Source: Armatimonadota bacterium
GTDB lineage: Bacteria; Armatimonadota; UBA5829
NCBI GenBank assembly: GCA_012522575.1
Contig: JAAYKE010000067.1
Coordinates: forward strand, 383 to 64,382
Length of the DNA stretch: 64,000 nucleotides
Reading direction: 5' to 3'
In this document: piece after piece, positions 3,862 to 63,365 of the stretch
Layout of the letters: every line of letters starts with the position of its first letter
Numbering within the stretch: the first letter of the stretch is position 1
Translations under genes and position numbers: made by a program
Notes under the pieces: model-generated
The model's database searches: none
What the model saw: the letters and a program-made list of their open reading frames with translations, nothing else
Told to the model about the DNA's origin: nothing

Positions 3862-4150
3862 CTCACGAGTGATGATATCTAGAGGTTGGAGGTTGGAAGT
3901 TAGAGGTTAGACAAGACGGTATCTCAATTCGTTCGAAATGACACAGCTTGCCTGGCTGGGACAGAGACCAGCCACTACGGTTTAGAGGTTGGAAGTTAGA
4001 GGTTAGAGGTTGGGAATGGGGTGGCGATACCGGCTCGAACTTCGGACATCTGACCTCGGACATCGAAAAAAGCAGATTTCTCGCTGCGCTCGAAATGACA
4101 TAGTATATGTGGCTGGGACAGAGGCCAGCCACGACCACTCACGAAGAGTG
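3862..4150. repeat. Composite MITE-like intergenic repeat, copy A. Contains two heptamer arrays (TAGAGGTTGGAGGTTGGAAGTTAGAGGTTAGA...) and a conserved core GGCGATACCGGCTCGAACTTCGGACATCTGACCTCGGACATCGAAAAAAGCAGATTTCTC..CGAAATGACA, bounded by GCTCACGAGTGAT / CACTCACGAAGAGTGAG termini
   Basis: Near-identical sequence blocks recur at 18807-19078 (inverted), 47968-48088 (inverted, partial) and 63003-63365 (two tandem units). ORF-track entries 3863..4138-, 3996..4187- and 4010..4381+ are artefacts of this repeat. Confidence 0.8.
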
Positions 4151-31909: not shown

Positions 31910-32035
31910 ACTACTGATAAAGGCAAACCTCGGGAAACCGGGGGGCGCAAAGCTATCGGGACTAAGCCGGGCAGCAAGGGTGGTCCATAAAATACCCGTT
32001 CTGAATGCCGCCACGGTATGTTGGCCGAGCCGCCG
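31910..32035 (+). promoter_or_regulatory. Candidate c-di-GMP-I (GEMM) riboswitch aptamer in the 5' leader of the small ORF / URO-D-family gene
   Basis: AAGGCAAACC-UCGG-GAAA-CCGG-GGGGCGCAAAGCUAUCGGGACUAAGCCGGGC is near-colinear with the Vibrio Vc2 core GGGCAAACC-AUUC-GAAA-GAGU-GGGACGCAAAGCC. It contains a GNRA-capped P1 hairpin and a CUAAG tetraloop-receptor-like element. It lies ~160 nt upstream of the ATG at 32194. Confidence 0.5.
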
Positions 32036-32193
32036 AAGTAGGAGTTGCCCGTGACCAGAGACTGTCGGATTCAGACTATCCGGCGAAAGGCCCAGATACT
32101 ATGGGCTGGCCAAATGCGGCGGTCTTTGATCTCAGGCGATTCGCCTTAGGTGGCTCGGCTTCTTTGCATTACCGTTATTTGGAGGCGAAGAAA

Positions 32194-32388
32194 ATGTTTA
32201 TTCCCGAAGCAAAGAACTACCTTGGCAAAGACTGCGCAGTCACTTTCAGTGACAGACACGGAAAGGTGCATACCCAAACCCTGCACATCCACGACGTGAG
32301 CTTCGTGCCGATGTATGGCGCGTGTTTAGTCGGCGATATCGACGACATCTGGCTTGATCGGGTGACCAAAATCACCGCTGTAGTGTAG
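32194..32388 (+). CDS. Small hypothetical protein (64 aa) with a strong RBS
   Basis: GGAGG 8 nt upstream of ATG gives MFIPEAKNYLGKDCAVTF.... The longer track ORF 32005..32388 would start inside the putative riboswitch. Confidence 0.4.
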   Translation: MFIPEAKNYLGKDCAVTFSDRHGKVHTQTLHIHDVSFVPMYGACLVGDIDDIWLDRVTKITAVV

Positions 32389-32568: not shown

Positions 32569-33660
32569 ATGACACCACGAGAAAATCTGCTGGCTTGTTT
32601 GAATCACAAAACACCGCAATGGGTCCCCAGAAGCGGCTCATTTACTCCCTATCAGATTCGACAGTTCAAAGAGAGAACGGGAGAGAGCGATATTGCGGCA
32701 TATTTTGGGATGGATAATCTGGGAGGCATTGGCCTCGGCCCGACCAGGCGCAGAGTCGATTTCTCCAGTTATCACAAATATTATGTTCTGCCGGATCATA
32801 TATCGGAGTATCGCATAGATGAATGGGGGGTGGGATGGGTTCCGGGATCGCTGCTTCATTTTGAGGATATGATCCACCCGATGCATTCCCTTGACAGCCT
32901 TGCGGAGTTTGAGGCGTATCCATATCCCGACCTTGACGCAGCGTATCGACTGGACGGAGTGCGTGAGCGCGTGAGGGAACTGCACGACCTGCAACTGCCT
33001 GTGATAGCATATCCGCTTCAGCTCGGAGGGACGATCTTTGAGAGTGCGTGGTATATGCGCGGGCTGGAAAACTTGCTGACCGATATGCTTTGCAACACTC
33101 AAATCGCTGCATATCATCTGGATCGGCTGACGCAAATGGCCATATCCAACGCGGCTTTTCTGGCCGAATGCGGGTCGGATGTGTTTATTTCAGGGGATGA
33201 TATCGCCACGCAGCGCGGCATGATGATAAGCCCTGAAATGTGGAGAGAATGGCTCAAGCCGCGTTTGGCAAGCATATATGAGGCGGCCAGATCAAAAAAG
33301 CCGGATATACAGATATGGTACCATTCCGACGGCGATTGTCGGGAGGTTATACCGGACCTCATTGAGATCGGAGTCACCATACTAAACCCGGTGCAGCCGG
33401 AGTGTATGGACCCGGCGTGGGTTAAGCGCGAATATGGCCGTGACCTGGCCTTGTGAGGAACTATCGGCACACAGACAACCATGCCGTTCGGCACGCCATC
33501 TGATGTGCGAGAGACGGTTAAGAGGATGATTGATCAGTGTGGGATCGACGGCGGCTTGTTCATCGCGCCGACCCACGTGATCGAGCCGGATGTACCGTGG
33601 GAGAATATCGTGGCTTTATATGATGCCTGCCGCGAATTCGGTGGTGATCCGAAAAGATAA
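32569..33660 (+). pseudogene. URO-D-family (MtaA/CmuA-like methyltransferase / uroporphyrinogen-decarboxylase-family) gene interrupted by an in-frame TGA at 33454-33456. The same frame continues for 68 more codons to a TAA at 33658-33660
   Basis: Track ORF ends ...YGRDLAL*. Downstream in-frame translation GTIGTQTTMPFGTPSDVRETVKRMIDQCGIDGGLFIAPTHVIEPDVPWENIVALYDACREFGGDPKR is the conserved C-terminus of this family. The TGA sits where homologs have Trp (L-x-F-W-G-G-x-D-T-Q). Confidence 0.6.
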
Positions 33661-33984: not shown

Positions 33985-34875
33985 TCAGGGGGATTTTGCT
34001 GTGAATGTCTCGATTAATCGTACGGGATGGTATGATTGCTTGGCTTTGCGCAGGCCGGGGATTCCGAGGTCCTGCTCCCGGTTGACGTATTTATATGACT
34101 GCGCCTCTGCCTTGCAGAATTCATTGTTGATAAGTTGATACAGGCCGTCGATTTGCGTGTGGGCTTTCTCCGCGTGAATGACCAGAGTATCGTCGTTCAG
34201 TTTTTCTCCCAGCGAGAAAGCGACGATCGCTCCACCGGCGCGAATTGCTCCGCCCACTATGCCGAGTGAGTCGAAATTGGTGAGCATCTGGTTCACCGCG
34301 CACCGCTCTTTGCGCAGACCCTCGATTGTCTCGCACATCTTATGCTCGCACCACAAATCAGCGAAAGCCTCGCACTCGACAGCCACCGACTCATCCATTT
34401 TCACATATTCATACTCTATCTGAGACCTGGCTCGCGCAATGAAGTTTCGCTTGCCGTCGAATCTGCGCCCGGCAAGCTCGATCAGGTCCTGCGCGGCGTA
34501 GACGTAGTCCGAATTGTCGGGATCATACTCGACTATAAGCCCTATATCTTTCATCTCACCGCCCGCTTCGCCGGATATGCGCTCGAATATCACGGGACGG
34601 TCGCTGCGGCGGATCATCTCCTCGACAACCGGCTTAATCGAGCCGACGCCCAGCGGCTCAAGGCTGGAAATGTGCTCATTTTGGTTGTTGATCAGCAAAA
34701 TGTGGTCGTATATGCGGGATAGCTCCGTTTGCTGAGACTCGCGCCAGGCGAATATATTGGTGAAGCTGTACGCGGAGATCTCCGTCGGCCTTTGTGCAAA
34801 GACCGCATCGAAGAAGGGCTTATCTCGCAGAGTTATTTGTCTTGATTGTGGATATTCAGGAATCATATTCATCAA
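33985..34875 (-). CDS. DUF2156 domain protein (homolog of the C-terminal lysyl-transferase domain of MprF/LysX)
   Basis: 296 aa. Family assignment is from overall pattern recall, so it is moderately confident only. Confidence 0.45.
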   Translation of the reverse strand: MMNMIPEYPQSRQITLRDKPFFDAVFAQRPTEISAYSFTNIFAWRESQQTELSRIYDHILLINNQNEHISSLEPLGVGSIKPVVEEMIRRSDRPVIFERISGEAGGEMKDIGLIVEYDPDNSDYVYAAQDLIELAGRRFDGKRNFIARARSQIEYEYVKMDESVAVECEAFADLWCEHKMCETIEGLRKERCAVNQMLTNFDSLGIVGGAIRAGGAIVAFSLGEKLNDDTLVIHAEKAHTQIDGLYQLINNEFCKAEAQSYKYVNREQDLGIPGLRKAKQSYHPVRLIETFTAKSP

Positions 34876-35647
34876 AAATGCGCCAGCGCATAATCTTCAC
34901 CGGCACATTGAACCATTTTCTTTTTGAGCCTGCCGGGGCCTTTCTCACTACAACTTTTCCATCTACCGGACTGGCCTCTATCCAACGCTCGTCTCCATAA
35001 TATATCATAACGTGTTTATCGTCGGCGACGGCCATATCTCCGACCTTGATCGTATTTGTATCGAATCCCGCCAGTTTTTCGGCGCTGCCTATCAGCCTTG
35101 TATACCCGTATTTATCCTGAGCTATATCTTTTGCGTCGATATCGCGCCACCAAAACGACCACAACTTTCTGCCCAACAACTGAGGATTGACTTCCTTTGC
35201 TCCCTGCCGCACCATAGCGTGCCATAGCGCGGCCCTCGCAAGCCCGGCGGAGTCAATTCCGATATCTGTCTCGCCGTTGACCTGATATGGAGTTCCGACA
35301 AACGCCCGCAATCGTTTATAGTAGACCTGCCGAAGCGCATCGGTGTCAGGTGGCTTGCTGCCAAGCACTGCCCAAACCACAAAGAGCGCGCTGAAAAATA
35401 CCGTCGGCCACACAGCCGCGTTTCTTTTGCCTATGCCGGAAAACAGGTAAACAAAACCGGTGAATATGCAGCTAAGCAGCGTCAAGACAAGCAGCAATCT
35501 TATCTGAGCGGTCATAGGAAAAATGCGTACGCCAATGCCGCACATCAGCAGCAATACGCCCGTTACTATCGCGCACAATACCTTGACGCTGATCTGTCGC
35601 GTAGTCTGTGTTTCGCCAGTTTCGGATTCAATTATATCGACCATCAA
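34856..35647 (-). CDS. Membrane-anchored NlpC/P60-like (C40 peptidase fold) protein with Ser in place of the catalytic Cys
   Basis: Two N-terminal TM helices, then GIDSAGLARAALWH (canonical DCSGLV) and GDMAVADDKHVMIYYG (canonical His box). Confidence 0.5.
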   Translation of the reverse strand: MMVDIIESETGETQTTRQISVKVLCAIVTGVLLLMCGIGVRIFPMTAQIRLLLVLTLLSCIFTGFVYLFSGIGKRNAAVWPTVFFSALFVVWAVLGSKPPDTDALRQVYYKRLRAFVGTPYQVNGETDIGIDSAGLARAALWHAMVRQGAKEVNPQLLGRKLWSFWWRDIDAKDIAQDKYGYTRLIGSAEKLAGFDTNTIKVGDMAVADDKHVMIYYGDERWIEASPVDGKVVVRKAPAGSKRKWFNVPVKIMRWRIFDEYDS

Positions 35648-35683
35648 AATATCTACGATCCGCCCGCGCCCATTGTTCCAATA

Positions 35684-36265
35684 TCACTTCGCCAGAGACG
35701 CGATAATACCTTCGGCTGTGTCGATGGAAACCCTTTGTCTCCAATACTTATCCTTGAGCAGCGCAGCATCATGGGAATTGGTCAAAAACCCGATCTCCAG
35801 CAGCACGGAGGGCATATAACGATATGTATCGCGCAGGACTCTGAGGCGGGAATACTGGCTCTGCGAGTCCCATTTTGCTCCCCGGTTGCGCAAATCGTGT
35901 TTTGCCAGTCGATTGACGAGTTGTTGAGCGATTGCATAGCTTCGCCTGTCCCCTTCCGCCACAAAAGCCTCCACTCCGTTTGCGGTCGCCGGCCCTGCGT
36001 TTATGTGGATGGAAACAAACAAATCGCAGTCGGCCTCTACTGCTTTCTTTCCACGTGATTCCAGGGTCACGAGCCTGCTATCCGGCCTGGTCACAATCGT
36101 TTTGATTCCGGCCAGGCGAATATTATGACCGATTCTGATGACAAAATCCAGGGCAAGCTCGTCCTCCACAAGGCCATTTGCCGCGCATCCGGTGTGGTGC
36201 AGACCACGATTTGCACCGTGGCCTGCATCGAGCGCGATTATGCGATTGTTGTCCTTCGCATTCAC
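35684..36265 (-). CDS. N-acetylmuramoyl-L-alanine amidase (Amidase_3 catalytic domain, no signal peptide; endolysin-type)
   Basis: IIALDAGHG, TRPDS, VSIHINAG and LLEIGFLTNSHD motifs. The start was reassigned to a GTG after a GGAGGT RBS (MNAKDNNRIIALDAGHG). The track ORF to 36688 over-extends. Confidence 0.75.
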   Translation of the reverse strand: MNAKDNNRIIALDAGHGANRGLHHTGCAANGLVEDELALDFVIRIGHNIRLAGIKTIVTRPDSRLVTLESRGKKAVEADCDLFVSIHINAGPATANGVEAFVAEGDRRSYAIAQQLVNRLAKHDLRNRGAKWDSQSQYSRLRVLRDTYRYMPSVLLEIGFLTNSHDAALLKDKYWRQRVSIDTAEGIIASLAK

Positions 36266-36270
36266 GCTGA

Positions 36271-36597
36271 TTACCTCCGAACCCTCTTCCACTGCTGATA
36301 TACGTGCTCGACCAGCAGGTTTGCGATGCTCTGCGGCACTGGAAAACCAAGCTCGGCTATGCATATCTTCTGAAGATAGATGACCGCCTGCTGGCGACGT
36401 TCGTCTGAGGACAATTCCGCTATCGCCCCCGCCCGTTCGATGGCGTCGGTGATTCTCTTTGCGCCGATCCTCTTTAGCCATTTGCGCGCCCAGCTCGGCA
36501 GCCTGTCCTTCTGGCTCAAATATGTGGTCAGCGCGCCCGTCACGCCGAGAGCAAGCGTAACCCAATCCCGGGTAGAAACAGTATCGAGTGTGATCAT
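36271..36597 (-). CDS. Putative holin-like small membrane protein (single N-terminal TM)
   Basis: 108 aa with WVTLALGVTGALTTYL hydrophobic segment. Its stop abuts the amidase start. The call rests on position only. Confidence 0.3.
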   Translation of the reverse strand: MITLDTVSTRDWVTLALGVTGALTTYLSQKDRLPSWARKWLKRIGAKRITDAIERAGAIAELSSDERRQQAVIYLQKICIAELGFPVPQSIANLLVEHVYQQWKRVRR

Positions 36598-36692
36598 ATA
36601 GGCTCCTTATATTATAGTTGATTGTGGGTTCTTGATTCTGAGGAGAGTGACGGCCCGCGAACCGCCGCCGATAAGTCCGGTTATCCAAATGC

Positions 36693-36992
36693 TTAATTGA
36701 GAATGGCGATTCTCACGACCGGTTCGCCGGCTATGCGGTGGACGGCGGTTTTGAGGACGGCATAGGTGCGGCCGTCGCGTGTCAGGGTATCTCCCACGCC
36801 TATGACTACATCCGGCGTTGTGGCCAGCATAAGAGCAGGATGAGTTATGCCCATTCGTTCGATATCATCCAAATACAGGCTCATATTGCCCGTATCGAGG
36901 AGCTTGAACATCCCGGCTCCGGTATTGCCGTTAATTACATATTCCTCCCCGAAACGCCGGAGCTTTTCGGCGAACCGCTCGGCAAATCGCAT
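36693..36992 (-). CDS. Phage head-closure / head-tail joining-like protein
   Basis: 99 aa. Its size and sequence pattern resemble the HK97 gp7-like head-tail joining family. Translationally coupled to the connector gene (GAGGTG-TAG-CAG-ATG). Confidence 0.4.
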   Translation of the reverse strand: MRFAERFAEKLRRFGEEYVINGNTGAGMFKLLDTGNMSLYLDDIERMGITHPALMLATTPDVVIGVGDTLTRDGRTYAVLKTAVHRIAGEPVVRIAILN

Positions 36993-36995
36993 CTG

Positions 36996-37427
36996 CTACA
37001 CCTCCTCTTTGATGCTGAATATAGGCTCTGCATCAGCGGTTGTGCTGGAGCAATGCGTCTCGGAGTCCATCGGCATGGCGCTTTTAAGATACGGAGCCAG
37101 CCGCGCGTGGCCTTGCCGAGTCAGGTCGACTCCGGATACTCCTGATGGCCCGATGGTGACTCCCGCCACGCCGAACTGCTCGGTTGCGCCGGTCTCTCTG
37201 CGCATCTGCTCGATGAATTCACCGGTTATGATTTCGAGAATCCCCAACTTGAGCGTGCCCTGCAACCCTGCGTTGAGCGTGTCGTTAAGATACATATCCG
37301 CGATGGAGTATTCGATCGGAGCCTGCATCTCGGAAATGAGCGCGGCTATAGCCGTATCGTAGTCAGTTACTGCGGAGTCAATGCCTGCTTTGCGCTTGAT
37401 ATCTGCGACAGTCAGGGTAATCGCCAT
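36996..37427 (-). CDS. Phage gp6-like head-tail connector protein
   Basis: The N-terminus MAITLTVADIKRKAGIDSAVTDYDTAIAALISEMQAPIEY matches the Phage_connect_1 pattern. Confidence 0.5.
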   Translation of the reverse strand: MAITLTVADIKRKAGIDSAVTDYDTAIAALISEMQAPIEYSIADMYLNDTLNAGLQGTLKLGILEIITGEFIEQMRRETGATEQFGVAGVTIGPSGVSGVDLTRQGHARLAPYLKSAMPMDSETHCSSTTADAEPIFSIKEEV

Positions 37428-37436
37428 TTGCGCCTC

Positions 37437-37802
37437 CTATCCGTAAAATGAGATATGAATCGTATCGTCTTGCCCTCCCTGCACGGGAGTGAAATCATCG
37501 ACGTCCAGGATCGCATAATACACCGTAGTCCCCTCCGGCACATCGTCGTCAATTGAATGCAAATCCGACAGAATATAGGCTGCATTGGATATGCTGATCG
37601 GGTCTTTGTAACCAATAATCAGCAACACATTAGAGATCGTTCTTGCGCTGAAGAACAAGCGAAAACGGGTTCCTCCGGTCACCTGGAAGCTGCCGTCGCT
37701 TTCTCCATCGAGGGAGTGCACCAGACCGCCGGTTCGCGTCCTGGCATCTCCGCCGGATGCGATATGCACCGCCACCGGCATTATATTTTTCAGATTGTTC
37801 AT
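37437..37802 (-). CDS. Hypothetical phage structural protein
   Basis: 121-aa ORF located between the capsid and connector genes. Confidence 0.3.
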   Translation of the reverse strand: MNNLKNIMPVAVHIASGGDARTRTGGLVHSLDGESDGSFQVTGGTRFRLFFSARTISNVLLIIGYKDPISISNAAYILSDLHSIDDDVPEGTTVYYAILDVDDFTPVQGGQDDTIHISFYG

Positions 37803-37909
37803 CGTATGGCTCTCCGCTTTGGGTCTTTGTTATATGGAGTCAGAAGTCTGGGTGACGATTCGCAAACCGCCACCCGTGGTGTTATTTTTCAGCTTCATTG
37901 CTGTGGCTG

Positions 37910-38817
37910 TCAGCTCACCTGGCTGCCGTAGGCCATCTGCCAGAGGCCATAGCCGGTGTTATACCGGGCGCGCACGCCATAGACAAACTCATCCCGCATA
38001 AACCCGCTCTCCGAATCCGCTTCGAGGGCCGCAAACTCAACCGGGGTTCGGCTCTGGAGGATGATCGGCTTGACGACACCTTTAGTCGAAAGCACAAACC
38101 AGTCGTTGACATCGGTCAGATATGGCGAGACAAGCAAATCGAGTTTGCCTTTGAGCACGTTTGAAGCGGCTCTTGATGTCGTGGAACCCTCCTCCGGCCA
38201 ATATGAACTCTCCAGAAGTTCCATAGCAACCCACTGCATATCCGGCGGCACTACCAGCAAATCCGGAGTTACTCCCATCAATTTGCCGCGGTCATCTCGA
38301 TATTTCATCATCGCGGTAATCGCGCTCTGCAACGCGGAAGCGGATAATGCTGCGGTTCCCTTGTTCGATTGAGACCCGGAATCCCCCTCGGAGTGATCTG
38401 TAGCAAAGAACGCCTAGCCGTCGTAGCACTTGCCGGTGAATCCGTTTTTGAGCAGGCCGAACGCTAGTTCGTCCATGTGCCTTTTCGCCTCGCGGGCCAG
38501 CGACACCACCCGCAGCTTGATCTGGCCATATTTATCGTCCTCTATGGCCGCCCTCTCGATGGCTATCGAGGACTCCCAGGTCTTGTTGCGTATCGAATAA
38601 TCGTGTTCGAGCAAGCCCAGCGGCATGCGCTCGTCGACGAACTCCCGAATTGCAGGAACCGCACCCAGCCAGGAATAAGTTTCCTGATCTGACCCGGAGC
38701 TTATCACTGTTGCGATGCGGGAATGTTCGCCGGCGGTGGCATCAAGGGCCTCGAAGAATACGGTTTTAAGCCCATCCTCAAGCAGTTTGGGCATATCTGA
38801 TCTTGTAAGCGGCATAT
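37910..38817 (-). pseudogene. Mu gpT-like major head (capsid) protein gene containing an in-frame TAG at 38414-38416. The N- and C-terminal halves are called as separate ORFs in the track
   Basis: Track ORFs 38414..38890- and 37910..38332- are in the same frame (84-nt gap, no other stop): ...GFTGKCYDG*AFFATDHSEGDSGS...LQSAITAMMKY.... Mu-gpT hallmarks are YSWLGAVPAIREF, CYDG-x-FFATDH, VVKPIILQS, FMRDEFVYGVRAR and GYGLWQMA. The likely real start is MPLTRSDMPKLL after an AGGAG RBS. Confidence 0.6.
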
Positions 38818-38967
38818 TTTTCTCCTGTTTGGATGTGATTGGTTGATGGTTGGCTGCGCATGCGGACGGACGATGATCTGCCCGTCGCATTCCAAAGCAG
38901 CCTCAAAGCAGAAAGCCCGGCGCTGAGAACACCGGGCCGATAGATGATATTGCACTGGCAGGCGAAC

Positions 38968-39576
38968 CTACTCCAGCGATAACTCTCCGATTTGGCTTAT
39001 GCCTTCGTTGTCGACATATTTGACCGCTATTTCGAAGGCCTGCTGTGGTGAAATGGGTTCAAATGAATGCACCATGATGTTCATTTGCACCGTGCGCGTG
39101 TGGTCGCCGATTTTCTGCAGCATGCGAATGCCTCTCAGCAGTTTTGCGCCTCGTCTGCGGTAGAATTCTATGCGCCGACGTGCGATATCTGCATCCGGCG
39201 AGTCCTCCGGCACTTCCACCTCGAAGACCACGAATTTCGCACCGCTTTCCTTTGCTCGTCTTACCACCTCGTCGTAGCACACTGCCCCAACTCCGCTGCC
39301 CCGCAGCGCCGGCAAAGTGGCGAGATACCAAAGCGCAAAGGCATTTATTTCGGGCTTGGTGCGATAAAACATAAGCCCGGCAAACTCCCCGCGCTCGTCC
39401 AATGCGGCGATCAGCCGACTTTCCACCCCGTCTTCCTTGATATCCGGGTTGAGGAACCGAAAAAAACCGGAAACCAGTATCTTCTCTTCGGGAGGAAACG
39501 CGGTCTCATACAAATCGAGCCAGGGCATAAAAAGAGCGTCGTTGATATCGGTTATTTCATAAAAAGTAATCTTCAT
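38968..39576 (-). CDS. GNAT-family N-acetyltransferase embedded in the capsid module
   Basis: 202 aa with an acetyl-CoA binding region (LATLPALRGSGVGAVCYDEVVRRAKESGAKFVVFEV). Confidence 0.65.
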   Translation of the reverse strand: MKITFYEITDINDALFMPWLDLYETAFPPEEKILVSGFFRFLNPDIKEDGVESRLIAALDERGEFAGLMFYRTKPEINAFALWYLATLPALRGSGVGAVCYDEVVRRAKESGAKFVVFEVEVPEDSPDADIARRRIEFYRRRGAKLLRGIRMLQKIGDHTRTVQMNIMVHSFEPISPQQAFEIAVKYVDNEGISQIGELSLE

Positions 39577-39611
39577 ACCGATTTTTTCGGCATCAATTGC
39601 TCTATTACCTG

Positions 39612-40028
39612 CTAGGCGGCATACCTGTCGATTCTGATCCTCACCGCAGTGGCGGATATGGACTCGACTGCGAACCCGGCGGTAATATTGGCCGTGGTTG
39701 CGGCATCGGTGACGGTCTGATTGTCCACGATATGGAACCCCACGCCCACATCGGTCTGAGCGCCGTTCGCGCCGCCGTCTACAAATACAAACGTGCCGGT
39801 GGTCTGGACGCGAATGCCGATATCCCCTGCGCTGCCGCCGGAGTTGTCTACGGTCTCATAGGCGACTCCGGCGAATGTTTCGGATGCGGTGTCGCTCGCG
39901 TTGGTCGCATAGCCGCTGGCGTTGATATTCACCAGCGCGCCTTTGGGAATTTTCACATTTGCCATAGGATAGCAGATGATCGCCCCATCCTTTCTTTTGG
40001 ACTCCCTGGCTGTGGTGGTTGCTGTCAT
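39612..40028 (-). CDS. Hypothetical Gly/Thr-rich phage structural protein (possible decoration/scaffold-associated)
   Basis: 138-aa ORF with beta-rich composition, located between the protease and capsid genes. Confidence 0.3.
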   Translation of the reverse strand: MTATTTARESKRKDGAIICYPMANVKIPKGALVNINASGYATNASDTASETFAGVAYETVDNSGGSAGDIGIRVQTTGTFVFVDGGANGAQTDVGVGFHIVDNQTVTDAATTANITAGFAVESISATAVRIRIDRYAA

Positions 40029-40044
40029 AAGATTCTCCTTTCCG

Positions 40045-40758
40045 TTATCTGCTCCTGTATTTTTCTACCAGCCCGCTGGTCACGCCGAGCTTTGCATACA
40101 ACTCCGGCTCTTCGACTTCCCCGGCTGCAGGCGCGACCTCCGAAAACTCAATCACCTTTGGCTGAGATTCCAAAAACCATCTGAAAACCTGAGAGATCGG
40201 AGTCGGTCGGTCGGCAAATGCGATTGTGTCGGAATCCTGCGAGCATAAAATAGCCCTTGCAAAGACCTCCGCTGCGGGCGCAATTTTGCCGCTTCTTTTT
40301 AGCTGATCTATGGCAATTTGCGCATCTTTTTCGGCTACTTCGCGGCGCAGAGCTTCATCGGAACTGCCAAATACCGAGCTGAGTTCTCCGTCGAGCCGAA
40401 CGCAATCCGCCTCCCCGAACACGGCAGCATCGGCTATCCTCGGCTCACGAACAAGGGATACCTCAGATATCCGGCTCTTGTCCTTGACAATGGCCACCGA
40501 AAGCCGTCTTGCGTTGGCAGATTTGACCAGTTCCCAGGCTGCTTTGGTAAAACACAGCCTCCCGAAAAGCTCCTTGCCTTTACGATAAACGTTTTTCAGC
40601 ACCCCAAGCGCGCCATCAAAAGGCGTCGAGGAGTGCTCAATGCGCAGCGGCGCATCGGATGTGTTGGCAATGATTCGATCGAGGTCCTCCTCGGTGATCT
40701 CAATGCCTCGATCCGGATAGCTGCCCGCCTCAAACAATTTAGCCTCACGTTCGATCAC
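40045..40758 (-). CDS. Mu gpI-like prohead protease / scaffold protein
   Basis: 237 aa. The N-terminus LFEAGSYPDRGIEITEEDLDRII resembles Mu-like prophage protein I, and its position after the portal gene fits. Confidence 0.4.
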   Translation of the reverse strand: MIEREAKLFEAGSYPDRGIEITEEDLDRIIANTSDAPLRIEHSSTPFDGALGVLKNVYRKGKELFGRLCFTKAAWELVKSANARRLSVAIVKDKSRISEVSLVREPRIADAAVFGEADCVRLDGELSSVFGSSDEALRREVAEKDAQIAIDQLKRSGKIAPAAEVFARAILCSQDSDTIAFADRPTPISQVFRWFLESQPKVIEFSEVAPAAGEVEEPELYAKLGVTSGLVEKYRSR

Positions 40759-40830
40759 AATTACCTCCTGAATTTGTTTGCATGTGAGAAATATATGGCA
40801 GTCCCATACGCTTTTATGTTCCGTGTAAAA

Positions 40831-42015
40831 CTAGCTCGGCAGACCCAGATATCCCCTGATCCACTCCTCGTCAGGCTTGATAATCTGCCCGCTCACCAGT
40901 TTTCCGATGACCTCCGCAAGCCCGGCGACATCCGCATCCTCCAGCGGCCCAAGGCTGAAGGTTGGATAGGATTTTGTCGAGAAATTGAAGTCAACCAGAC
41001 GCTTTATGACCTGCTCACGCATGACGGCTTCCTCAAGGTCGCGTTTGAGCTTATGCAGGCACATCTTGAGCACGTCGAGATGCACCTTTGCGAGCGCGTA
41101 GCTGCCCACTCGAATGCCCTCGTCGGTCATCAGCGTCTGGCAGAGAATTGCGCGGGATATCTGCTTGTCGTGCCATTCGATGGCCTGCAAATACCCCGAT
41201 TCCCCGCCACGTCCGGCCTCCAGCAGTTCCACCTGCACGTCATCCGGGATGACGATGGCGGTCTGCTGCTGAATCTTGTCCAGCACTCGCAGCAGTTCTT
41301 CCTGCGCCTGCTTCGGAGTTCCGCGCTTGTAGGAGCCTTTAGCGGTCGGGGAGCCGTGCTTCTCCAGATACAGATTCATAAACCGGGTGAGCACGTCTTT
41401 GCTCCAATAGTGCTTATATGCGGCGCGCAGATCCGATGTGCCGTAGGGGGATTCATACCTGGGCATGTGCGAATATATCACGAACTTATCCGATGGAAGC
41501 GTCCGCTCGACCGAGGCTGTCCCCGTCCGCTTCAACGCCCGCACGTTCATAAACTCATCGACCTCAAAGGAAAAAGTCGACGGGTCCTTTGCCTTTATGG
41601 AAGCGATTCCCACGCGACCTTTATGGGGGCCGTCCTCGAAAATGCTATAGTTGATTTCCAGTATGGAAAAGCCCTTTGCCAGCGCATCGAGCACATTGTA
41701 TAGCACGGTCAGTATCGAGCCGCGCATATCCGCCAGCGCAAAACGCACGAAGTCCGCGACCTCCACATCCTGCGGATCGCGCGTCGCCGGGTGCACCTCC
41801 CATCCGTGCGATAAAACCGCAAGTTTTTTGATAGTCAAACACGCCTGCACCTGAGCGTCGCGCTGCATTTGTTCATATATTGCATAACCTCTTCTGCCGA
41901 TCAGGTCATCGGGGTTGTATGAGTCGATATCGTTAATCAAAGACCCGGCAGCGGCCGTCTCATTCAGCCCGGGAGAACGCCGCTTGCTGAACCGGGAAAG
42001 CAGTGGAATCTTCAT
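40831..42015 (-). CDS. Phage portal protein (DUF935 / Mu gp29-like)
   Basis: 394 aa with a DUF935-like pattern, located immediately downstream of terL. GAGGTG RBS. Confidence 0.55.
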   Translation of the reverse strand: MKIPLLSRFSKRRSPGLNETAAAGSLINDIDSYNPDDLIGRRGYAIYEQMQRDAQVQACLTIKKLAVLSHGWEVHPATRDPQDVEVADFVRFALADMRGSILTVLYNVLDALAKGFSILEINYSIFEDGPHKGRVGIASIKAKDPSTFSFEVDEFMNVRALKRTGTASVERTLPSDKFVIYSHMPRYESPYGTSDLRAAYKHYWSKDVLTRFMNLYLEKHGSPTAKGSYKRGTPKQAQEELLRVLDKIQQQTAIVIPDDVQVELLEAGRGGESGYLQAIEWHDKQISRAILCQTLMTDEGIRVGSYALAKVHLDVLKMCLHKLKRDLEEAVMREQVIKRLVDFNFSTKSYPTFSLGPLEDADVAGLAEVIGKLVSGQIIKPDEEWIRGYLGLPS

Positions 42016-42066
42016 AAAACACCTCGGGTTTGGACGTTGGAAATTGGTTGTTGGAAGTTGGGCGGT

Positions 42067-43386
42067 CTACCAGCTTTGCCTTGCCATTCTGCCGGCCTGA
42101 CTCAAATATGCGGAATTGTGCGCAAACCCTTCGGTCTGTTTGCAGGCCAGCGCGAGGGCGATCACCAGGTCGTCGTTGATACCGACCCTGCCGTTCATAC
42201 GCACATTGCCGGAGGCGGTCAGCTCGTATTCATAATATTGAAGCTCCCGCAGAAGCTGCTCGTCGGGTAGAATGGTGATCGAACGGTGCGCGAACTTGAG
42301 GGACAAATGCTCTATCAGATCTCGTTTGGATCGGTTTGAGAATGTATAGCCCTCCACCGCCACATCGATGCCGAAGTCCCATAACCTGGCGCGAAGCTGT
42401 TCGAGCAGGGGATCCCCTATCGAAGTAGAATCGGCGAGCGCGCAACTCACTCGATGGGTTTTGAGGAACTGCGCAACCCTTGTGATCTGGCTGTCCCAGC
42501 CCATTTTATTGAACCTGTCGATGCCGATTATGTGGCAGCCGCGTTCATCCGATACCATCGCGACCACGGCGGTATAGTCCGAATATCTCGCCCAGTCTAT
42601 TCCCGCCACCACCACGCCGTCCGCGTCCGCTGCGTGCGAATCGGAGACCGCCGCCTCGATGTCCTCCCATGCAAAAACGCAGTTGGAATCGTCGATAAAC
42701 TGCGCCTCATATTCCACCGCAAACTGCCTCGGACTGATCTCCTGCCGCTGAGTTTCGATATATTGACGACTTATATGCGGGTTTGCCCACGATGGAAAGT
42801 TGAATGACCGGCACGCCGCGCCGTCATCAGACCCTGCGCCCCTCATAAATGCGCGATAGAAATGATTCCTGCCAAATGGAGTGCTGATCATAACCAGCCG
42901 ACCGTTGCGATCGGCAAGCATAGGGGAAATGACCTCGCTTATAACGGAGTCCCGAACAAACGCGGCCTCATCGACTATCACCCTGTCTGCGGAATGTCCG
43001 CGCAGATTGCGCCCATCCTCATCGGCGGTGCGCGCCATTATCAGGCTGCTGCCGAGAGCAAGCCTCGGATAGGGAGTGCGCGTGATTTTGGTGATGCCGC
43101 GAGTGAGCCGCGAGCCTGTCATCAGTCGTTCGATATGATCGAAGATGAGCCTGGATTGATCGTAAGTCGGGGAGACTATGATCTGCTTTGAGCCGGGATG
43201 CAAAATGGCGAGGGTGGCGGCGTCCACCGCGGCGGCCTCGGTTTTACCCCATCGACGCCCGCAGGATGCCACCTTAACTCCCGCATCGGTCAGCAGCCAT
43301 TTCTTCTGTGTTTCGTGCGGTTTCCATCCCCAGATATGATCGGCCAGCGTCAGGCGAACCGATGAATCAGTCCCCGCGGGCATTGT
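42067..43386 (-). CDS. terL: Phage terminase large subunit
   Basis: Walker A CGRRWGKTEAAA plus a C-terminal RNaseH-like nuclease region. The start was set to the internal Met (MPAGTD), and the gene overlaps terS. Confidence 0.75.
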   Translation of the reverse strand, partial: TMPAGTDSSVRLTLADHIWGWKPHETQKKWLLTDAGVKVASCGRRWGKTEAAAVDAATLAILHPGSKQIIVSPTYDQSRLIFDHIERLMTGSRLTRGITKITRTPYPRLALGSSLIMARTADEDGRNLRGHSADRVIVDEAAFVRDSVISEVISPMLADRNGRLVMISTPFGRNHFYRAFMRGAGSDDGAACRSFNFPSWANPHISRQYIETQRQEISPRQFAVEYEAQFIDDSNCVFAWEDIEAAVSDSHAADADGVVVAGIDWARYSDYTAVVAMVSDERGCHIIGIDRFNKMGWDSQITRVAQFLKTHRVSCALADSTSIGDPLLEQLRARLWDFGIDVAVEGYTFSNRSKRDLIEHLSLKFAHRSITILPDEQLLRELQYYEYELTASGNVRMNGRVGINDDLVIALALACKQTEGFAHNSAYLSQAGRMARQSW

Positions 43387-43744
43387 CGCCCTCCGTTTTG
43401 TCGTGAATGGCTTTGACCATATCGACCAGAGCCGCCCCGGGATCCTCACTTTCGGCATCGAAAACCCCGCTCACTTTAAGCACATCGACGAGAACCTTGG
43501 TGTCCGGTTTGTCCGGATTGGACGCCAACTGACACAGCCGAGCGGCCGAGTTCACCACTGCCTGCCGCGCTATCCTTTTGGCCCCGAGTTCCTGCTCACG
43601 CTCACGAACCCTCAAAGCGCGCGCAAAACGATCCGATTCCATCCAACCTCTTAAAGTAGAAAGACGCACCCCGATCATTTCAGCCACAACCGTATCGGGA
43701 TGACAAAGAAGCAACTCGATTGCATCACGATGTTTAGCCCTCAT
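43367..43744 (-). CDS. Putative terminase small subunit / HTH DNA-binding protein
   Basis: 125 aa with an HTH (VAEMIGVRLSTLRGWM), directly upstream of and overlapping terL. AGGAGG RBS. Confidence 0.45.
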   Translation of the reverse strand: MRAKHRDAIELLLCHPDTVVAEMIGVRLSTLRGWMESDRFARALRVREREQELGAKRIARQAVVNSAARLCQLASNPDKPDTKVLVDVLKVSGVFDAESEDPGAALVDMVKAIHDKTEGDNARGD

Positions 43745-47967: not shown

Positions 47968-48088
47968 TCGCCTTGACTCGATGTCCGAGGTCAGATGTCC
48001 GAAGTTCGATCCAGTATCACAACCCCATTCCCAACCTCCCAACCTCCAACTTCCAACCTCCAACCTCTAACCTAGATCGCCTTGACTC
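47968..48088. repeat. MITE-like repeat, copy C (inverted, truncated: heptamer array plus GGGAATGGGGTTGTGATACTGGATCGAACTTCGGACATCTGACCTCGGACATCG) flanked by the 12-bp direct repeats TCGCCTTGACTC
   Basis: Direct repeats at ~47968-47979 and ~48077-48088 bracket a ~97-bp insert, resembling a target-site duplication. Track ORFs 47834..48070+ and 47901..48104+ are artefacts. Confidence 0.7.
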
Positions 48089-59971: not shown

Positions 59972-60975
59972 TGAAAAATCGAGGCGGATTCCCCCGGGTT
60001 ATAACCTATATTGCGCTTGTTGTTCTCGGCACGGCGTTTACGCTGCCGTTTTTCTGGCTGCTTTCGACCTCCCTCAAACCGGATTCACGAATCCAGCAAT
60101 GGCCGCCGGATATCATCCCGATGCTGCCTGTCAAGGTCAAGCTCGACGGCAGGCAACGCGAGGTGCGCCTGACTCCAGATGGCGCTAAAGTCGCCTTGAT
60201 GGAGCGGCTCGAAGGCGGGAAGGCAAGCATTAAGCCGCTGGATGGCGGCAAGACGAAGATCGTGGACGGAGATCAGCTTAAACCGGTCATACGCCCGGGG
60301 TTTCAGTGGTCGAACTACACGCGGGGACTGGTTTTCATCCCGTTCTTCCAGCAGCTTAGAAACACGCTGATAATCTCGATATTCACCGTCATCGGCACAA
60401 TTTTGAGCTGCAGCCTGGTGGCCTATGGGCTTTCGAAGATCGACTGGAAGGGTCGCAATGTGCTGTTTGTGGTGATGTTGTCTACTATGATGTTGCCTGC
60501 GCAGGTGACTATGATCCCGGTCTTCGCGATTTTCGTTAAACTGGGCTGGGTGGACACGTTTCTGCCGCTCATCGTGCCGAGTTTTTTGGGAACTCCATTC
60601 TTCATCTTCCTGCTCAGACAGTTCTTTTTGGGGATACCGAAGGAACTCTCCGAGGCAGCGAAACTCGACGGGTGTGGAGAGTTTGGCATATATAGAAGGG
60701 TGATAATGCCGCTTTCCAAGCCCGCTTTGGCCACGGTCGGGTTATTCACTTTTATGGCGGCGTGGAACGACTTTATGGGGCCGTTGATTTATCTTCTCGA
60801 CGAGTCGAAATATACGCTGTCGCTGGGTTTGGCTATGTTCACCGGTCAATATGGCAACGAATACGGCATGCTGATGGCGGTGTCCGCAGTCGTCACTATC
60901 CCGATTATCGTGCTATTCTTCTTCACGCAGCGCACGTTTATACAGGGGATGACTATGAGTGGGATAAAAGGATGA
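59971..60975 (+). CDS. Sugar ABC transporter permease (MalG/UgpE-like) with an extended periplasmic loop
   Basis: EAA loop (EAAKLDGCGEFGIYRRVIMPL). ATGA overlap with the downstream gene. Confidence 0.85.
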   Translation: MKNRGGFPRVITYIALVVLGTAFTLPFFWLLSTSLKPDSRIQQWPPDIIPMLPVKVKLDGRQREVRLTPDGAKVALMERLEGGKASIKPLDGGKTKIVDGDQLKPVIRPGFQWSNYTRGLVFIPFFQQLRNTLIISIFTVIGTILSCSLVAYGLSKIDWKGRNVLFVVMLSTMMLPAQVTMIPVFAIFVKLGWVDTFLPLIVPSFLGTPFFIFLLRQFFLGIPKELSEAAKLDGCGEFGIYRRVIMPLSKPALATVGLFTFMAAWNDFMGPLIYLLDESKYTLSLGLAMFTGQYGNEYGMLMAVSAVVTIPIIVLFFFTQRTFIQGMTMSGIKG

Positions 60976-63002
60976 AACACGAAAATAATAAGTTTGGACA
61001 ATCGCAGATTACGCAAGCCGCTGATATGCAGGTGAGCCACGATTTATTCCGACGCTGGTTTGCCGGGCCGGGAGACATTCCAATCTCATTTCTGCTCGAC
61101 GGGGAAGTCATCAATGGCATCCCGTAGGGATGGAACCCAACCGTAAACAGGCGTCTTATCGATGCCAACATCACTGAGACAACGTTCGATGGCACGGACA
61201 TCAAAACCGGCCTGAACCTGCGGATTGAGTTCACGCAGTATCGGGACTATCCGGTCATTGAATGGGTGGCGTGGTTCACCAACACGAGCGAGAAACCCAC
61301 GCCGGTCATAAGCGACATTCTGGCTCTGGATGGATCAGTCGACGACGCGTCACCGGTCGTGCACCACTGGAACGGCGACTTCTACCACGAGGAAGGCTAC
61401 ACGCCATTCCAAAGTCCCCTTCGGCCCGGCGACAAACTCGACTTCGCTCCCGACGGCGGACGATCATGCGACCGGGCATTCCCCTACTACCGCGTCAAAT
61501 TCGACAACTGGGGACTCTCCCTCGCCATCGGATGGCCTGCTCAGTGGGCGGCATCTTTCATCTGCGAAACAGGCGGCCTGCGCCTTGTGGCGGGTCAGGG
61601 CAGGACAAATCTGCGGCTGATGCCGGGAGAGCGCATCCGAACGCCTCGGATTACCATGCTGTGCTGGTTCGGTGATGATTCCAGAGCGGTGAATTTGTGG
61701 CGACGCTGGTATCTGGCTCATATCCTTCCCAGACCAAATGGCCAACCGTTGAGACCTCTTCTTGCGTGTTCTGGAACCGATGACGGCGAGGAGTTCACGG
61801 AGGCGACTGAAGGCAACCAGATTGCCTGTATCAGCAAATTCGGCACACACGACATTCACCCTGATGTCTGGTGGATCGATGCCGGATGGTACCCCTGCCG
61901 TGACGGGGAAGGCAATCGCAGATGGTGGCGCACCGGCGAATGGGAGCCTGACCCTGATCGGTTCCCCAACGGTCTCAAGCCCATATCCGATTGGGCTGCC
62001 GAGAGCGGCGCCGATCTGCTGCTCTGGTTTGAGCCGGAAAGAGTGCAGCCCGGCACTCAAATCGACGTGCAGCGCCCGGAGTGGTTGCTCAAAGCCCAGG
62101 GCGACGACAACGGGCTGTTGAACCTTGGCAACCAGGAGTGCCGCCAATGGCTTACGGATCACTTTTGCAGTCTGATTCAGGACAACGGAGTAAAGATATA
62201 CAGACAGGATCACAACTTTGCGCCGCTGCAGCACTGGCGCGAGAATGAACCCGAGGACCGCCAGGGCATACATGAGAACCTGCACGTGCAGGGTTATCTT
62301 CAGTTCTGGGACGATCTGCTGGCGAGAAATCCGGGCCTGTGGATTGACTCATGCGCGAGCGGAGGGCGACGTAATGACCTTGAAACGATGCGCCGATCCG
62401 TGCCCCTGCACTATACCGACTTCGGCTATGGAAATCATCCGATCAAGCTTGCGTTCCATCGCACGCTGTTCGAGTGGATACCCTACTTCAAGGAATCCAC
62501 TCTTTCCTGGGATAAAGCGGAAACGCCGACCGATTTTTCCGCCGTTGACAGATTTGACCGCGCAGTAGACAGCTATTCGTACCACTGCGGCTTTGCGGCT
62601 ATGCTCTATGCCAGTCTGAACATAAGGCGCGAAGACTATGACTATGCCCTTGCCGGGAAGATGATTGCCGTCTGGCGCAGAGCCGCCGATGTGCTACTCT
62701 ACGGCGACTACTATCCCCATACGCCGTTTCACCGGAGCATTGAGAAGTGGGTCGCGTGGCAGTTCGATCGTCCCGAACGCGGCGAAGGCTTTATTCAAGC
62801 GATTCGGCTCCCGCTTGCGCCGGACGATACTATCACCATCCGCCCAAAGGCGCTCTGTGAAGACGCCCGCTATGTATTCGAGAATGGCGAAACCGGGGAC
62901 GCCATTGAGTTGTCTGGGGAGACGCTGATTCGTGACGGATTTGCGATTACTTGCCCGACCAGAAACGCTGCGATATGGTTCTATAGGTCCAAACACTCAT
63001 AG
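60972..63002 (+). pseudogene. GH36-like alpha-galactosidase gene with an in-frame TAG at 61125-61127; contiguous reading frame from the ATG at 60972 to the stop at 63002
   Basis: Track ORFs 60762..61127+ and 61266..63002+ share a frame, and the 138-nt gap has no stop: ...ISFLLDGEVINGIP*GWNPTVNRRLIDANITETTFDGTDIKTGLNLRIEFTQYRDYPVIEWVAWFTNTSEKP.... Catalytic-domain motifs are WWIDAGWY, LLLWFEP, YRQDHN and IDSCASGGRRND (GH36/GH27 clan). The ATG overlaps the permease stop (ATGA). Confidence 0.55.
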
Positions 63003-63365
63003 CGTAACAACTCACGAATGATAAGCGCCCCTGCCTGTAGTGTCCGATCTCCGTCTCGGACAGCAGGTGTTCGTTGATAGATTGCCCGGCTGGGACAGAG
63101 ACCATTTAGAGGATAGAGGTTGGAAGTTAGAGGTTAGAGGTTGGGAATGGTTTGGCGATACCGGCTCGAACTTCGGACATCTGACCTCGGACATCGAAAA
63201 AAGCAGATTTCTCACTTCGTTCGAAATGACAAGGTTCGTGTGGCTGGGACAGAGGCCAGCCGCTACGGTTTAGAGGTTAGAAGTTGGAGGTTAGAGCTTG
63301 GGAATGGTTTGGCGATACCGGCTCGAACTTCGGACATCTGACCTCGGACATCGAAAAAGGATTAA
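63003..63365. repeat. MITE-like repeat, copy D: terminal block CTCACGAATGATAAGC...GTCCGATCTCCGTCTCGGAC followed by two tandem ~157-bp units (heptamer array + GGCGATACCGGCTCGAACTTCGGACATCTGACCTCGGACATCGAAAAAAGCAGATTTCTC + CGAAATGACA + TGGCTGGGACAGAGGCCAGCC)
   Basis: Direct comparison with copies A, B and C. Track ORFs 63012..63215-, 63040..63273+, 63141..63341+ and 63298..63513+ are artefacts (shared peptide MGMVWRYRLELRTSDLGHRK). Confidence 0.8.

Follow-up and report, generated by a model that had tools for sequence, protein, structure and literature searches.

Reassignment of TAG to glutamine by means of suppressor tRNAs, with capsid genes among those concerned, is described for some phage lineages (PMC11210395, PMC10879173, PMC10607447). 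The capsid gene considered here lies in a 64-kb stretch of a metagenome-assembled genome (MAG) of an Armatimonadota bacterium (the window). The gene resembles recoded phages (PMC11210395, PMC10879173) in having an in-frame TAG in a capsid gene at an alignment column rich in Gln, but differs in that there is one such TAG rather than many, that TAG is a normal terminator in the surrounding cluster and that no suppressor tRNA lies in the window. The stop also differs in not being conserved even in near-identical strains, the ancestral codon being Lys AAG. From an ordinary amber mutant, of the type classical for phage capsids, or from a pseudogene call in a draft MAG, the locus shows no difference of substance. 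Here, too, one base change makes a TAG in an otherwise intact capsid gene.

The gene product is a colinear match to the Mu gpT family (PF10124), and its neighbours encode a Mu-type portal (PF06074) and a Mu I-like protease/scaffold protein. Unlike its namesake, the gene does not reside in a transposable Mu-like prophage; transposase, tail and lysogeny genes are absent and the locus is a fixed chromosomal one in relatives. The cluster can also be likened to the capsid-forming PICIs, but these have an integrase/replication module, whereas the cluster in the window has neither an integrase nor a replication module. With gene transfer agents (GTAs; PMC11841831, PMC5721377) the cluster shares phage structural genes unaccompanied by functions for replication or integration, a locus that is constant among sister species, strong purifying selection and a lysis enzyme. 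GTAs are head-tail clusters, however, while the cluster in the window has no recognisable tail genes.

A Mu gpT-type capsid gene with one in-frame amber codon

On the minus strand the gene reads TGC TAC GAC GGC TAG GCG TTC TTT GCT ACA GAT CAC around the interruption, with the TAG at window positions 38416..38414. In the original prediction, two open reading frames, 38414..38890 (-) and 37910..38332 (-), lie in one frame with just the TAG and 27 sense codons between them. Re-reading of the minus strand bears this out and places the sense codons at 38333..38413. The start used by orthologs is not at 38890 but is an ATG at 38815 behind AGGAGA, all orthologs beginning with MPLTRSDMP. From there the frame comprises 301 codons with one internal stop (codon 134) and ends with TGA at 37912..37910. 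The parts of the gene are as follows:

37910..38815, minus strand: major capsid gene of the Mu gpT type (HK97-fold family) with 301 codons, a TGA terminator and one interruption (translation, PF10124, full-length homologs)
38414..38416, minus strand: in-frame amber TAG at codon 134, arisen from AAG (Lys) through replacement of A by T at window position 38416
38417..38815, minus strand: N-terminal fragment of 133 aa, annotated GX139_06145 in the source MAG, the sole product if the TAG is real
37910..38332, minus strand: C-terminal remainder of 140 aa with a TTG start, annotated GX139_06140, no independent gene (same-frame continuation, PF10124)

The annotation pipeline thus recorded the capsid gene as a pair of hypothetical proteins (GX139_06145 and GX139_06140). 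Positions 4-125 of the Pfam profile PF10124 (Mu-like_gpT) are matched by the 133-aa N-terminal part with E = 3.6e-35 and 122.2 bits (cut-off 20.1), and the 167-aa C-terminal part covers the remainder of the profile with E = 2.6e-34 and 119.3 bits, so that the match lies above the curated cut-off across the full length of the profile. As both halves match one profile colinearly, the two frames form a single gene cut by one codon rather than neighbours by chance, and the expected homology of the downstream frame to capsid C-termini is confirmed as well. Residue 134 is embedded in GFTGKCYDG-X-AFFATDHSEGDSGSQSNK. Against the sister species, each half of the capsid gene has a dN/dS of about 0.04, so that the downstream half lacks the drift expected of a pseudogene.

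The surroundings are those of a phage head module, with TerS, TerL, Portal_Mu (E = 1.7e-73) and a head maturation protease/Mu I-like protein nearby. The genes of this island, all on the minus strand, are:

34856..43744, minus strand: island, comprising a head module of phage origin and, after it, cell-wall hydrolases (PHROGs, Pfam, synteny in other Armatimonadota)
43367-43744, minus strand: small terminase
42067-43383, minus strand: large terminase
40831-42015, minus strand: Mu-type portal (PF06074)
40045-40758, minus strand: protease/scaffold-like protein
39612-40028, minus strand: structural protein (phrog_1731)
38968-39576, minus strand: GNAT acetyltransferase
37910..38815, minus strand: major capsid protein (MCP)
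36271-37802, minus strand: four small open reading frames
35684-36265, minus strand: Amidase_3
34856-35647, minus strand: NlpC/P60-like protein

That every other gene of the island is intact, as the original prediction held, agrees with the lengths of the cluster genes, which equal those in near-identical contigs (L010/L014).

The codon in homologs, near-identical strains and public records

A protein search of a 5.8-billion-protein collection gave 851 matches at E <= 1e-20. Among the best 120 of these 851, nearly all are full-length at about 300 aa and mostly derive from Armatimonadota MAGs, with up to 91% identity (301-aa versions), and the column of the TAG is occupied by Q in 101, K in 6, H in 4, R in 4 and other residues in a few, with no stop. 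The two nearest homologs (90-91% identity) read CYDG-K-AFFATDH, and the DNA of the sister species (about 82% nucleotide identity) has GGC-AAG-GCG where the window has GGC-TAG-GCG. In a scan of one genome per GTDB species, an ortholog was found in 40 Armatimonadota species, and all 57 orthologous loci from these (about 40) species carry a sense codon at the TAG column (AAG 17, CAG 24, CAA 5, the rest other sense codons). Only one ortholog, L046 10001-10894 (MAG MFD02416.bin.3.344), shows stops in the alignment. Its frame shifts from 0 to +1 to +2 and back to 0 through three 1-nt insertions, and every frame segment is conserved; parallel pseudogenisation was therefore rejected for L046, and the insertions are probably long-read consensus errors rather than decay, judging by their pattern in the alignment.

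Contigs of the same clone were found by looking up the exact neighbouring proteins of the window. They come from ENA ERZ941572, an anaerobic-digester metagenome (48.6-kb contig; loci L010, L014, L018 and L065), from JGI 3300038805 (loci L011, L066, L069 and others) and from Logan SRR3166067 (L012). The last stems from the same run as ERZ941572, and the three assemblies thus represent two independent metagenome samples. The capsid gene in L010 and L011 is identical to that of the window at 905 of 906 nucleotides, the sole difference being nucleotide 400, which is A (AAG, Lys134) instead of the window's T. The third contig, L012, covers codons 91-301 and equals the window over its span except at the same base, where it also has A. 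The interruption is hence, as anticipated, a single-codon event at the YDG-[K/Q]-x-FF position of an otherwise intact gene, and the residue replaced, put down as Lys for Mu gpT in the original prediction, is Lys in the nearest homologs and the near-identical contigs, with Q the commonest in the family.

In NCBI the truncated products match the window exactly (GX139_06145 with 133 aa, GX139_06140 with 140 aa, and GX139_06090/06095, all on one 99,468-bp contig), from which it follows that the stops are present in the deposited assembly. An artificial or planted mutation was rejected, the truncated products in NCBI being identical to those of the window. Only one other record has the same TAG at the same base, ENA ERZ2847836 NODE_34266 (L073), in a comparison that, as regards the window's private alleles, covers the TAG site only. 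This contig has a k-mer coverage of 1.49 and is noisy, with 21 mismatches in 2.2 kb (about 1%, scattered), 17 of them transversions. A random error coinciding at the same base with the same change has a chance of roughly 0.3%. As such a coincidence is unlikely, either L073 has reads or a sample in common with the MAG or its population truly carries the T allele, which speaks against pure error but not against a non-programmed origin. The private missense alleles of the window, as far as three proteins are concerned, are on record from the NCBI MAG only and occur in none of the Logan, ENA and JGI assemblies. The 133-aa fragment had no exact match in the contig index, and a protein-cluster look-up located it in the NCBI MAG. 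Patterns with exact flanks and a free codon, or degenerate but specific for TAG, had no match in metagenome_contigs, where the AAG allele is likewise absent and the strain is missing; the TAG-specific degenerate pattern had no match in viral_contigs either.

The amber codon is not the only private change of this MAG. Counted over the 59 kb of the window to which ERZ941572 contigs, JGI contigs or both align, with mismatch clusters at contig ends set aside, 21 isolated private substitutions fall to the window, one to ERZ941572 and none to JGI 3300038805, and there are no indels. The private sites of the window are 554, 9646, 22215, 24123, 24554, 27678, 29445, 32197, 32951, 33456, 38416, 40785, 40793, 45804, 54660, 55306, 55482, 57492, 57536, 57816 and 61125, at a density of about 1 per 2.8 kb. 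Wherever a substitution could be polarised against more distant contigs or the sister species, it is the window that has the derived base. Transitions and transversions stand at 7:14, and the changes are distributed as follows:

missense: 11 observed, 61% of 18 coding changes; random expectation for these genes 72.7%
synonymous: 4 observed, 22% of 18 coding changes; random expectation 23.6%
nonsense: 3 observed, 17% of 18 coding changes; random expectation 3.7% (0.67 expected)
intergenic: 3 of 21 private changes

The three nonsense changes are:

33454..33456, plus strand: private stop W296*, TGG to TGA, in a URO-D family gene (32569..33660), by direct translation
61125..61127, plus strand: private stop E52*, GAG to TAG, in a melibiase gene (60972..63002), by direct translation
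38414..38416, minus strand: private stop K134*, AAG to TAG, in the capsid gene

The URO-D family gene is intact (363 aa) in L010 and elsewhere and is split as GX139_06090/06095 in the NCBI MAG, and the melibiase gene is intact (676 aa) in L069-L072. Reverting the 21 private bases leaves all 55 database-called genes intact. The private branch is without an imprint of selection, unlike the long-term evolution of the same genes. The presence of at least three nonsense changes among 18 coding changes lies above random expectation (P = 0.028), and this excess is poorly explained by either error or mutation. The asymmetry of 21 to 1 is unlike the clock-like divergence of two natural lineages, and the scatter of the changes suggests residual consensus errors or, alternatively, a mutator or bottlenecked sub-lineage.

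Two of the private sites, 40785 and 40793, are only 8 bp apart. Both fall into the 72 bp that separate the stop codon of the portal gene from the GTG start of the protease/scaffold-like gene, and they precede this GTG by 27 and 35 nt.

Decoding of TAG and explanations for the amber codon

Among 35 database-called genes on the near-identical contigs, TAG terminates 13, TAA 12 and TGA 10. Six cluster genes end in TAG at lengths consistent with their orthologs, namely those for TerL, the portal, the 138-aa protein, GNAT and the 121- and 143-aa proteins, making TAG the commonest terminator within the cluster, while it accounts for about a third of the terminators in the flanking host genes. TAG inside a frame occurs once in the cluster. 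ARAGORN found no tRNA gene in the 64-kb window and hence no suppressor tRNA(CUA) there, and the only hit of an Rfam scan of the window was a c-di-GMP-I riboswitch, nothing relevant to decoding. The cluster thus neither avoids TAG as a terminator nor contains many in-frame TAGs, as would be expected of a recoded element, no suppressor tRNA(CUA) is encoded by it within the 64-kb window, and TAG is not rare as a terminator (13/35 genes), as it would be if it encoded pyrrolysine. With TAG used in this way and no tRNA in the window, neither a reassignment of TAG nor an efficient suppressor is tenable.

With high confidence, the TAG is regarded as an ordinary terminating amber codon of non-programmed origin, either a consensus error or a very young nonsense mutation. 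It is a single A-to-T substitution, private to this MAG, that turns AAG for Lys134 into TAG with, on this reading, no decoding mechanism attached. In the case of a consensus error, the base would stem from low-coverage, error-prone reads, and the organism would make a normal 301-aa capsid protein. In the case of a real mutation, the nonsense allele would be found on one sub-lineage in which only the 133-aa N-terminal fragment would be made, and, going by what is typical of the HK97-fold family, this copy of the head cluster could presumably not assemble capsids. The balance tips slightly towards consensus error, as the assemblies are asymmetric, the spectrum is rich in transversions like the noise in L073, no sign of selection is seen and the per-run assemblies lack the private alleles. 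A real mutation draws support from the presence of the T allele in two separately built assemblies (the MAG and ERZ2847836 NODE_34266). The very recent nonsense mutation put forward in the original prediction is compatible with strain-level contigs that differ at this base alone and read AAG, as is a base error.

A second idea in the original prediction, amber suppression or readthrough, possibly as a programmed limit on capsid production, fares less well. Here the TAG would be decoded part of the time, by a suppressor tRNA of the host or the element or by near-cognate reading, so that full-length capsid protein would be made in a smaller, regulated amount. Apart from the TAG the gene has no flaw, the T allele is found in two records, and homologs accept K, Q, H, R, V, T or E at the column, so a suppressor inserting Gln, Lys or Tyr might yield a functional protein. 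Yet the 57 orthologous loci, the 120 homologous proteins and the near-identical strains all have a sense codon or residue at this position, and a stop that is not conserved leaves no room for programmed readthrough. An efficient suppressor would also extend the six cluster genes and the 13 of 35 genes overall that end in TAG, and the window has no tRNA gene that could provide it. The same private branch has in addition produced a TGA and another TAG in unrelated host genes, and one suppressor cannot rescue both types of stop, while as a device to limit capsid production the TAG would be just one of 21 scattered, unselected-looking changes that include these two host-gene stops. Finally, the base following the capsid TAG is G, and UAG followed by G is a comparatively efficient termination context in E. 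coli. Readthrough, whether programmed or tolerated, is accordingly considered very unlikely. A change of the genetic code, in which TAG would be reassigned to Gln as in recoded phages or would encode pyrrolysine, is the least probable of all and hardly credible. Gln is the commonest residue of the family at this column, as such a change would have it, but the ancestral codon in the clade is AAG for Lys and not CAG, a single in-frame TAG stands in a cluster whose most used terminator is TAG (about a third in the flanking host genes), no suppressor tRNA is present in the window, and the element is chromosomal and vertically inherited rather than a lytic phage genome.

The capsid gene could also be seen as part of a decaying prophage remnant, with the TAG as the mark of a long-standing loss of function. 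At first sight the cluster is indeed remnant-like, lacking tail, integrase and replication genes. Against this, a single base separates the gene from the intact allele of the same clone, dN/dS is 0.04 in both halves and 0.04-0.31 across all cluster genes with dS as saturated as in the flanking host genes, no other gene of the cluster is broken, and conservation of the cluster extends over about 40 species. It follows that the lesion is either extremely recent or not real and that the cluster is kept by selection, which makes an old pseudogene highly improbable, even more so than readthrough. With an error or a young mutation as the favoured explanation, the amber codon is of no importance as a decoding phenomenon, being a private point lesion of a known kind or a base error. 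A caution applies to the MAG itself: with three premature stops in 64 kb, its in-frame stops are not to be read as recoding.

The head-plus-lysin cluster and other features of the window

The cluster in which the capsid gene lies has the same neighbours in the window and its sister species, with Peptidase_M55, FGGY and creatininase genes on one side and genes for PEMT, STAS and a 1270-aa FG-GAP protein on the other (window, L001/L023, L024, L006/L007 and L026). All cluster genes have dN/dS values of 0.04-0.31, and their synonymous sites are as saturated as those of the flanking host genes. By comparison of these sequences, the cluster is inherited vertically among the closest relatives of the window, where strong purifying selection acts on it. 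Most of the roughly 40 Armatimonadota species with the head module have its genes in colinear order, with the portal located downstream of the capsid gene in loci of the Capsulimonadaceae type. In L042, a distant complete chromosome, the head module is followed by small open reading frames and an endolysin and then by ordinary host genes. The endolysin is of the VanY/M15 family and so of another family than the lysin in the window.

Searches with PHROGs and Pfam revealed no tail, integrase or replication genes in the island. Tail tube, tape measure, sheath and baseplate had no matches in the cluster of the window or downstream of the head module in L042. The 143-aa and 99-aa open reading frames after the capsid gene, whose ortholog profiles had no significant match among PDB sequences, are suspected from their sequence pattern to encode head-tail adaptor and head-closure proteins. 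As in GTAs, a phage-derived structural cluster thus occupies a fixed locus, is vertically inherited under purifying selection and comes without replication and integration genes, but a complete set of head and tail genes is found neither in the cluster of the window nor in L042. Judged by its gene content and conservation, the cluster may be a domesticated, GTA-like or capsid-donor element. Full-text searches of the literature found no description of a tail-less head-plus-lysin cluster from Armatimonadota. It is possible, though rather doubtful, that the T allele is real and represents a natural capsid-null variant of such an undescribed, tail-less head-plus-lysin cluster, perhaps one that is domesticated, GTA-like or a capsid donor. 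If so, the novelty would lie in the element and not in the amber codon, and the amber strain would offer a ready loss-of-function comparison.

The GNAT gene (38968-39576, minus strand) is situated between the structural-protein gene and the capsid gene only in the near clade (window, L001-L009, L023, L024 and L026). In more distant species this position holds other insertions or nothing, so that the site resembles a cargo slot of the moron type within the head module.

The c-di-GMP-I riboswitch (RF01051, 64.3 bits) is found at 31912-32037 on the plus strand, just beyond the head cluster and upstream of a conserved gene for a 64-aa protein (32194-32388) and the URO-D family gene. L023, L024 and L026 have it in syntenic position, but no copy lies within 10 kb of the cluster in L027, L039, L042 or L046. 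No link between riboswitch and cluster is apparent, as the synteny extends only to the nearest species.

An intergenic repeat family with a 157-bp spacing and a purine-rich motif of the TAGAGGTTGGAAGTTAGAGGTTAGAGG type occurs at three places in the window (3879-4135, about 47968-48057 and 63079-63358). The copies are 88-97% alike, and it is at these repeats that assemblies of related strains are prone to end or to conflict.
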